NCBI GenBank assembly: GCA_963635575.1
Contig: CAVHFU010000002.1
Coordinates: forward strand, 17,768-81,767
Reading direction: 5' to 3'
DNA: 64,000 bases
Origin: a bacterium
Lineage (GTDB): Bacteria; Bacillota; Clostridia; TANB77; RGIG9151
Made by a program: the position numbers and the translations under genes. Shown here one piece after another: positions 11,219 through 11,347 of this stretch (the first letter of the stretch is position 1; each line of letters begins with the position of its first letter). Below the pieces are notes generated by a model. It was not told the DNA's origin and searched no databases. It was given only the letters and a program-made list of their open reading frames with translations.

Positions 11219-11347
11219 ATGAAAAAAATGTTATGTAAGTTGGTAAACAAGGTGGCAACAGTATACGGAGGAATGACAAGTAGTGCATCAACATTTTTAG
11301 TATTAGGCCAAGTTAAAACACCGGCTTGTTTAATTAAGAAAGATTAG
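11219..11347 (+). CDS. agrD: AgrD-like autoinducing-peptide precursor (42 aa)
   Basis: AAAGGAGGAG RBS. Basic/amphipathic leader MKKMLCKLVNKVATVYGG. Single Cys near the C-terminus (TPACLIKKD). Immediately downstream of agrB. Confidence 0.5.
   Translation: MKKMLCKLVNKVATVYGGMTSSASTFLVLGQVKTPACLIKKD

Follow-up and report, generated by a model that had tools for sequence, protein, structure and literature searches.

The AgrD precursor Clo1313_2818 of Clostridium thermocellum (also named Hungateiclostridium or Acetivibrio thermocellum) yields a lactone closed between Ser25 and Phe29, which has been confirmed by LC-MS/MS, and has a tail that starts at Y30 and carries a conserved P35; prediction places the leader cut at A24|S25, and the tail-less lactone was confirmed (PMC5322536). 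In Staphylococcus aureus, AgrB cuts AgrD1 at M32|D33, straight after the ring (PMC10196373). Precedents for autoinducing peptides (AIPs) closed through Ser and for rings of six residues are documented (PMC12312760, PMC4916163, PMC3673130, PMC8251862). Ser lactones are made by S. pseudintermedius, as RIPT[STGFF], and by E. faecalis, as GBAP, QN[SPNIFGQWM] (PMC12312760, PMC3673130); a Ser ring is also listed for AgrD2 of C. difficile (PMC12312760), and the AIP of C. acetobutylicum, [CVLVTL], has a six-residue ring (PMC12312760, PMC4916163). In clostridia, some agr loci are known to be split or only partial (PMC12312760).

We analyzed a stretch of 64,000 nucleotides of bacterial DNA, here called the window, in which an agrB gene is followed by a small ORF encoding an AgrD-type peptide. 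The window AgrD resembles that of C. thermocellum in its clostridial origin, in a predicted Ser nucleophile that follows Ala (A23-S24, compared with A24|S25), in a tail that would begin at residue 30, and in a Pro35 at position +6 of that tail. It differs in its predicted ring of six residues, where C. thermocellum has five, and in lying beside agrB, which the C. thermocellum agrD does not; the tails differ as well, starting with Y in C. thermocellum and with G-Q in the window, where a Cys stands at +8 and the end is a basic LIKKD. With C. acetobutylicum the window shares a nucleophile placed six residues before the cut and an agrBD unit set apart from the kinase genes, but the ring there is a Cys thiolactone rather than the Ser lactone predicted here, and a separate agrCA operon takes the place of the AgrC-like kinase, with no AgrA seen, of the window. 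The signals of S. pseudintermedius and E. faecalis are, like the product predicted here, Ser lactones formed by AgrB/FsrB-type enzymes; their rings, however, have 5 and 9 residues, respectively, the producers are Bacilli whose BDCA operons are complete, and the leaders and tails of the precursors are unrelated in sequence to those of the window. S. aureus AgrD1 has the same layout of an amphipathic leader, an AIP core and a charged tail of around 14 residues (PMC10196373, PMC12312760), but it closes a thiolactone through a Cys at -5, and D33 and E34 are essential in its acidic tail, whereas the window tail is net basic and opens with G-Q.

We consider it likely that Ser24 is the ring former of the window AgrD and that the precursor comprises a leader, a six-residue lactone core and a 13-residue follower peptide, the standard three-part organization of AgrD.

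Results

A conserved AgrD-type precursor is encoded next to agrB

The ORF runs for 42 codons from ATG to TAG and encodes the peptide MKKMLCKLVNKVATVYGGMTSSASTFLVLGQVKTPACLIKKD, in which Cys6 and Cys37 are the only cysteines. It starts 58 nt after the agrB stop codon on the same strand, giving the gene order agrB, agrD; the features of the locus and the distant relatives of the peptide are collected in Table 1. We compared eight genome loci that carry a relative of the window AgrB at 62-93% identity, all from MAGs of uncultured Clostridia/Eubacteriales of human, rumen and other animal gut. Seven of these extend beyond agrB, and in all seven a 42-codon ORF lies 3' of it. The arrangement of agrB followed by a small ORF is common to L001-L004, L006-L008, L010 and L012-L015, a GGAGG-type site precedes the 42-codon ORF in all of the related loci compared, and the exact length of 42 residues is kept across AgrB identities of 52-93%. 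A profile scan of metagenome contigs with the AgrB alignment added two loci only.

Table 1. Features of the window around agrBD (window coordinates) and AgrD relatives from outside the family.
Feature	Coordinates	Strand	Evidence or remarks
~189-nt structured element, upstream copy	~10188-10376		two copies 91% identical, bracketing agrBD
Sigma-70-like promoter candidate, TTGACT-17-TATTAT	10472..10500	+	consensus scan, 10/12 matches; upstream of agrB
agrB, 205-aa membrane cysteine peptidase, putative AgrD processor	10543..11160	+	Pfam PF04647
agrD ribosome-binding site, AAGGAGGAG	11204..11212	+	read off the sequence; end 8 nt 5' of ATG
agrD, 42-aa autoinducing-peptide precursor	11219..11347	+	ORF; 89 homologues; pN/pS 0.27; TIGR04223 at 15.3 bits
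Leader, residues 1-18, MKKMLCKLVNKVATVYGG	11219..11272	+	amphipathic; M1, K2, L5, Y16 invariant
Ser24 codon, predicted lactone ring nucleophile	11288..11290	+	Ser 81/81, after invariant A23; aligned to ring Cys of P0200/P0201
Residues 25-29, TFLVL, hypervariable hydrophobic block, predicted ring/specificity residues	11291..11305	+	entropy, pN/pS
Residues 30-42, GQVKTPACLIKKD, predicted follower removed by AgrB, 13 aa	11306..11344	+	conservation; aligned to HQPKMP… tails
Pro35 codon	11321-11323	+	within follower peptide
Cys37 codon	11327-11329	+	within follower peptide
Intrinsic terminator after agrD, hairpin TCTCGACCGGTCCTCGAGA, then T-run	11417..11443	+	also in L001
~189-nt structured element, downstream copy	~11455-11644		see upstream copy
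201-aa ORF	11628-12233	-	between agrD and kinase
Sigma-70 family factor	12252-12758	-	between agrD and kinase
AgrC-like sensor histidine kinase, 444 aa, probable receptor	12868..14202	+	Pfam and NCBIfam matches
P0200, MLKFLAKVAEKYAKVTNNAC-VLIIF-HQPKMPACMIKRD			TIGR04223 31 bits; Cys at nucleophile position
P0201, …TTNTC-HAWLF-HEPKAPKCLIKK			TIGR04223 27.5 bits; Cys at nucleophile position
P0202, …SAGAS-IPLIM-HQPKMPTKLIKKD			TIGR04223 27.1 bits; Ser at nucleophile position
P0203, …TTTTS-FAWWL-HATKAPATLIKK			
P0204 and P0205, …NTAS, six residues, HQPKMPASLIKKD			TIGR04223 25.2 bits (P0204) and 23.2 bits (P0205); Ser at nucleophile position

A profile search with the peptides of these loci returned 89 database proteins, nearly all of exactly 42 residues; the alignment with homologues called for by the initial annotation finds the ORF conserved throughout, with no frameshifted homologue and no longer AgrD version among the database entries. 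We therefore rejected the possibility that the ORF is a truncated or frameshifted form of a longer AgrD: every homologue ends at the same ..KKD stop, and the few entries of 62 residues are in-frame upstream start miscalls of the same gene. Purifying selection clearly acts on the reading frame, with a pN/pS of 0.27 over the whole ORF in ten distinct DNA sequences, in which synonymous sites are near saturation (pS 0.68). The ORF is a genuine, conserved AgrD-type precursor from a lineage of uncultured gut Clostridia. A Pfam search of the 42-residue peptide gave no match; the Pfam AgrD model is centered on staphylococci. In a sequence search of the PDB the AgrD profile found no solved relative, its two weak matches being coronavirus spike helices at E ~0.8, which we treat as noise, and the AgrB profile likewise found no solved relative.

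The window AgrB matches PF04647 at 2.9e-31 over profile positions 1-184 of 185. Its 106 homologues are nearly all of 205 residues, for which reason we place the start of agrB at the ATG at 10543 and not at the GTG at 10534. R69, G73, G74, H76 and C83 do not vary among 17 AgrB sequences. In S. aureus, AgrD cleavage requires R70, G75, H77 and C84 (PMC10196373), and the R-to-H and H-to-C spacings in the window protein equal those of S. aureus, a correspondence drawn by spacing and not by structural alignment. Judged by these residues, the window AgrB looks intact, with catalytic-type residues kept. The promoter-like site upstream of agrB and the intrinsic terminator after agrD frame the pair as a two-gene unit. 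The promoter candidate is a match to the consensus only; promoter-like sites are no more numerous here than expected from shuffled sequence.

The unit is bracketed by the two copies of a structured element of ~189 nt, each of which is inserted directly behind an intrinsic terminator's T-run. Neither copy is present in the otherwise syntenic loci L001, L002 and L003, and the RNA fold z-score of the upstream copy is -6.4. Searches of Rfam in and around the locus, at the gathering thresholds and at E<=1, gave no known family, the sub-threshold matches being at chance level. The copies were inserted recently and represent a small mobile or repeat element. We also considered whether these flanking direct repeats (200 bp) are the ends of a mobile agr cassette, and rejected this, as agrBD occupies the same site in L001-L003, where the repeats are missing.

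Conservation places the agr signature away from the C-terminus

Column statistics were calculated from an alignment of 81 distinct homologues of 42 residues (alignment A3). M1, K2, L5, Y16, A23, S24, P35, L38 and K40 are invariant in all 81 sequences, and K3, N10, K11, M19, S21, G30, Q31, K33, C37, K41 and D42 are each conserved in at least 90%. The amphipathic N-terminal leader is present in the window peptide, with moderate support from a helical hydrophobic moment of 0.415 over residues 1-18, compared with 0.209 +/- 0.104 for shuffled sequences, of which 3.6% reach 0.415; the initial annotation had described such a leader, and it is borne out at this level. That annotation had also offered Cys6 as an alternative ring former, which is ruled out because position 6 is Cys in 42 of the sequences and Ser in the other 39.

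In the core, which opens with the conserved motif M-T-S-(N/S)-A-S, residues 25-29 are the sole strongly variable stretch of the peptide, lying between the invariant A23-S24 and the near-invariant G30-Q31. The column entropies in this block are 2.0-2.9 bits, and the 81 sequences hold 76 distinct pentamers, in which all residues are hydrophobic or small. The pN/pS ratio is 0.62 for residues 25-29, compared with 0.16 for the tail (residues 30-42) and 0.05 for residues 37-41. The family pattern of the tail is GQxKxPxCLIKKD; in the window it is net basic, with three Lys and one Asp, and starts with G-Q. The tail of FsrD is also basic and begins with G-Q. A fixed nucleophile, hypervariable ring residues and a conserved follower peptide are the signature of agr signals, and by the conservation pattern this signature is located at the putative nucleophile Ser24, the predicted ring residues 25-29 and the predicted follower 30-42, away from the C-terminus.

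Distant relatives align a ring Cys with Ser24

The NCBIfam model TIGR04223 (AgrD family cyclic lactone autoinducer peptide) matches the window peptide at 15.3 bits, under its cut-off of 19 (E 0.017), in an alignment that runs end to end, from window residues 4-40 on model positions 2-38 of 38. Of the 81 family members, 60 are matched by the same model at E<=1, and the best match reaches 1.4e-6. When 1.84 billion representative proteins were searched exhaustively with the family profile (HMMER), more distant relatives came up, with whole-library E-values between 9e-6 and 7e-4; P0200, P0201, P0202, P0204 and P0205 among them lie above the TIGR04223 cut-off, at 23-31 bits. The earlier description of the ORF as an AgrD-like precursor of 42 residues is upheld by the agrB-agrD gene order, by the end-to-end model alignment and by this link to AgrDs that pass the cut-off.

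Outside the family, the closest relatives by sequence are P0200 and P0201, which are metagenomic and uncharacterized. Their genes lie directly downstream of AgrB genes, as agrD does in the window, and the AgrB beside P0200 (locus L016) has 205 residues and is 33% identical to the window AgrB. Like the window peptide, both have five variable residues between nucleophile and tail and a tail that ends in P-x-C-[LM]-I-K-[KR]-(D), the tail Cys included; they differ from it in having Cys as nucleophile in place of Ser, and in a tail that starts with H-Q-P or H-E-P in place of G-Q-x. MAFFT places the ring Cys of both peptides in the Ser24 column and their H-Q/E-P-K-x-P segments (HQPKMP, HEPKAP) over G30-P35. 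Residues 1-36 of P0200 are reported at TIGR04223 positions 3-38; in this match, as in that of the window peptide, residues and model positions are equal in number, and, going by these coordinates alone, Ser24 and Cys20 of P0200 would both fall on model position 22 if the alignments run without internal indels. The comparison shows Ser24 to be homologous to the putative ring Cys of these relatives. P0204 and P0205 have an extra residue after the Ser, before the HQ motif, and ring size or cut site may accordingly not be fixed.

Proposed processing of the window AgrD

We infer the cut site, the ring size and chemistry, the leader cut and the receptor pairing as follows. By homology, AgrB, encoded just upstream, would recognize the follower G30-D42 and cut at L29|G30, holding the carboxyl group of L29 as a thioester acyl-enzyme on Cys83. 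The side-chain hydroxyl of Ser24 would then resolve the acyl-enzyme to give a six-residue lactone macrocycle, S-T-F-L-V-L, and a second peptidase would take off the leader, possibly at A23|S24; the released peptide would be sensed by the neighboring AgrC-like kinase. The cut is placed at 29|30 because conservation begins sharply at G30, because the HQP-type tails begin in the column of G30, and because the invariant Pro then stands at +6, as in C. thermocellum. The tail of S. aureus AgrD1 has Pro at +6 and Leu at +9. A23|S24 is a plausible site for the leader cut because the small residues of S-x-A|S are conserved, A23 in all of the sequences and S21 in 90% of them. Cys37 would on this scheme belong to the discarded tail and not to the ring.

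Alternative rings and fates of the peptide

A five-residue ring S-T-F-L-V on the same Ser24, with a cut at V28|L29 and a tail of 14 residues, LGQVKTPACLIKKD, would follow the rule in characterized AIPs (PMC4916163, PMC12312760), and position 29, which is always hydrophobic or small, could suit P1'. Position 29, however, varies like the rest of the block (2.19 bits; L, V, F, I, A, Y), conservation starting only at G30, the residue aligned with the His that opens the HQP/HEP tails of the relatives. A cut at 28|29 would also move the invariant Pro to +7, where 29|30 gives the +6 of C. thermocellum (PMC5322536), and a ring of six has its precedent in C. acetobutylicum. We regard the five-residue ring as unlikely.

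Two elaborations of the Ser24 scheme are rather doubtful, and we give them as a tentative pair: Cys37, which stands at +8 counted from the cut, may have a part of its own in processing, such as a thiol relay or handshake with the catalytic Cys of AgrB, or a Ser lactone cut at A23|S24 may use its free alpha-amine in an O-to-N acyl shift that would yield a homodetic cyclic hexapeptide. Cys AIPs of Ruminiclostridium undergo an enzyme-primed ligation, in work that left the fate of such Ser lactones open (PMC8251862); a shift in the window lactone would be the oxygen analogue of that ligation.

It is also conceivable, at a low probability, that AgrD is processed but acts as a linear signal, or has a role other than quorum signaling. 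No AgrA-type regulator was found nearby, some relatives have agrBD with no kinase in their 8-kb flanks, and the formation of a Ser ester is chemically less favored than thioester exchange, all of which would fit such a role. Against it, the catalytic residues of AgrB are invariant, the nucleophile position is strictly Ser, or Cys in relatives, an invariance that a linear peptide would not need, and an AgrC-like kinase is linked to agrBD in three gene orders; for C. thermocellum, the peptide was detected in its cyclic form, which was active, whereas the linear form was not (PMC5322536).

The initial annotation had taken Cys37 as the thiolactone former, with a ring C-L-I-K-K from which AgrB would remove D42 alone, leaving the follower almost absent. 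As a description of the sequence this was accurate: Cys6 is in the leader, Cys37-L-I-K-K is followed by D42 only, and a five-residue ring does leave a single residue over. Cys37 is moreover conserved in 74 of the 81 homologues, and its sole replacement within the family is Ser (the remaining 7), itself a possible nucleophile. However, AIP rings are the hypervariable, specificity-determining part of the signal, and residues 37-41 are nearly invariant, with 9 variants among the 81 sequences (CLIKK in 48 and CLVKK in 18), the hypervariable block lying instead at 25-29. Position 37 in P0200-P0205 is C, C, K, T, S and S, so that distant relatives may have K, T or S there while keeping Cys or Ser at the canonical nucleophile position. 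In P0200 and P0201 the tail Cys occurs in addition to a canonical ring Cys, and it therefore cannot be the residue that defines the ring. The end-to-end alignment with the AgrD model puts residues 30-40 in the follower region, and a lysine-rich ring would be unlike the hydrophobic AIP rings listed in PMC12312760. We therefore consider a Cys37 thiolactone highly improbable. The apparent shortness of the tail arose because a Cys was assumed to be the nucleophile instead of Ser24; counted from G30, the tail has 13 residues, with the conserved Pro at +6.

A large lactone of nine residues from Ser21 to L29, of the ring size of E. faecalis GBAP (PMC12312760) and with the FsrD-like tail in its favor, is scarcely credible, since Ser21 is present in only 73 of the 81 sequences and is replaced in the other 8 by N, A, T, L or R, mostly unable to form a lactone, whereas Ser24 is invariant and aligned with the ring Cys of relatives.

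An AgrC-like kinase accompanies agrBD

With the Ser24 lactone as the predicted signal, the probable receptor is the sensor histidine kinase encoded downstream, from which agrD is separated by two genes on the opposite strand (Table 1). Its Pfam domains are HATPase_c_5 (GHKL, 2.6e-17) and SPOB_a (SpoOB-type, 5.7e-9), and with the NCBIfam model of staphylococcal AgrC it scores 127.9 bits (5.8e-37), short of the equivalog cut-off of 500. A homologous kinase stands beside agrBD in three gene orders: that of the window, L001 and L003, one directly after agrD in L006 and L010, and one directly before agrB in L012. Some relatives have agrBD without a kinase within 8 kb. The gene after the window kinase encodes a 2-hydroxyacid dehydrogenase. 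No AgrA-type LytTR regulator was found among the window ORFs scanned with Pfam, which include all four of 230-250 residues, and the families listed for the 8-kb flanks of L012 and L014 do not include LytTR.

Comparison with the close relative L001 gives 87.5% identity for the agrBD DNA and 92-96% for the flanks. The predicted ring residues are TFLVL in the window and MFLFL in L001, and the kinases are 77% identical in the membrane sensor half and 95% in the catalytic half. This divergence is the pattern expected of agr signal/sensor specificity variants, a reading of signal and sensor co-divergence that is tempered by the tendency of membrane domains to evolve faster anyway.

Discussion

The reading of the window AgrD as a Ser24 lactone precursor leaves it mildly unusual in its Ser nucleophile, in its predicted six-residue ring, and in a net basic tail that starts with G-Q and has a conserved Cys at +8. 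Each of these features is minor or has a precedent, and jointly they would mark an uncharacterized clade and not a new kind of system. Several observations weigh against the Ser24 reading: a six-residue ring is the minority case among characterized AIPs, the spacing between Ser and tail differs in P0204 and P0205, the tail is net basic and opens with G-Q where the acidic tail of S. aureus opens with the essential pair D-E, Cys37 is strongly conserved in the family and also present in P0200 and P0201, the window peptide falls under the TIGR04223 cut-off, and no LytTR regulator was found near the locus.

The anomaly of the short tail is resolved, in that the window AgrD keeps the rule of a follower peptide of 12-15 residues, and the general understanding of agr systems is unchanged by it. 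With a score just below the curated cut-off, the gene is probably left unnamed by automatic annotation, and a text search of the literature by tail motifs found no mention of the family, returning unrelated papers only. The family is a compact, uncharacterized clade of around 90 peptide variants and around 76 ring sequences from uncultured gut and rumen Clostridia. It is a likely example of two rarer AIP features together, a Ser lactone and a six-residue ring, and the large set of ring variants that it offers in nature, paired with AgrC sensor domains that diverge, would be usable for the study of signal-receptor specificity in gut anaerobes.

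Repeat elements and genomic position of agrBD

A structured element of about 189 nt brackets the agrBD pair, in two copies that share a common orientation and are 91% identical to one another. Within each copy, two short hairpins come after a long one, the last of them with a T-run, and each copy is placed directly 3' of the T-run of an intrinsic terminator. The upstream copy has an RNA fold z of -6.4, and Rfam holds no family matching the element. As both copies are absent from L001-L003, the syntenic close relatives, they are a small mobile or repeat element that was inserted recently. 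The two ends of L009, a short public contig from the same strain, fall inside the two copies.

In the related loci L014 and L015, agrBD lies directly 3' of rplM and rpsI, which encode ribosomal proteins (Pfam L13 and S9); in L006, L007 and L008, ORFs of 145-154 and 130 aa precede agrB, and match rplM and rpsI in size and place. The upstream neighbor in the window lineage is a different one. The pair has been relocated within the genome, yet kept intact.

Features around agrBD in the window
Feature	Coordinates	Strand
Structured element, upstream copy	10188-10376	+
Structured element, downstream copy	11455-11644	+
201-aa ORF, no Pfam family	11628-12233	-
Sigma-70 family factor of ECF size (168 aa), with regions 2 and 4	12252-12758	-
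AgrC-like sensor kinase, 444 aa	12868-14202	+
506-aa ORF	15244-16764	-
tRNA-Gly	16728-16801

Neighboring genes

The sigma factor gene and the 201-aa ORF downstream of it lie between agrD and the kinase gene, on the strand opposite to both, and this pair also adjoins agrBD in L001-L003. The 201-aa product may be an anti-sigma factor. The sigma-factor region can be aligned in L007 as well; toward its C-terminus (approximately 11760-12020), the 201-aa ORF does not align even to L001. The 506-aa ORF looks like a repetitive surface protein: a module of about 85 aa (…KATLTYDD-YISLSKTKLTSSGKVTV…YIDVII) recurs several times in tandem, with Asp-rich linkers in between. Its true start is probably further downstream than the listed TTG, since the latter overlaps the tRNA-Gly gene.

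Variation in AgrD and its probable receptor

In our alignment of 81 distinct 42-aa AgrD homologues, Cys28, inside the variable block, is restricted to peptides with Ser37 in the tail (P0188, P0194, P0195, P0197 and P0198). These five are probably one lineage, and thus the co-occurrence may reflect a single evolutionary event.

The agrBD DNA (10369-11454) is 87.5% identical to that of L001, compared with 92-96% for the flanking DNA. Against the same relative, the kinase half of the AgrC-like protein retains 95% identity and the sensor half 77%. Taken together, agrBD and the sensor region of the kinase constitute a local hypervariable region, and in this local hypervariability they resemble the staphylococcal agr specificity groups.
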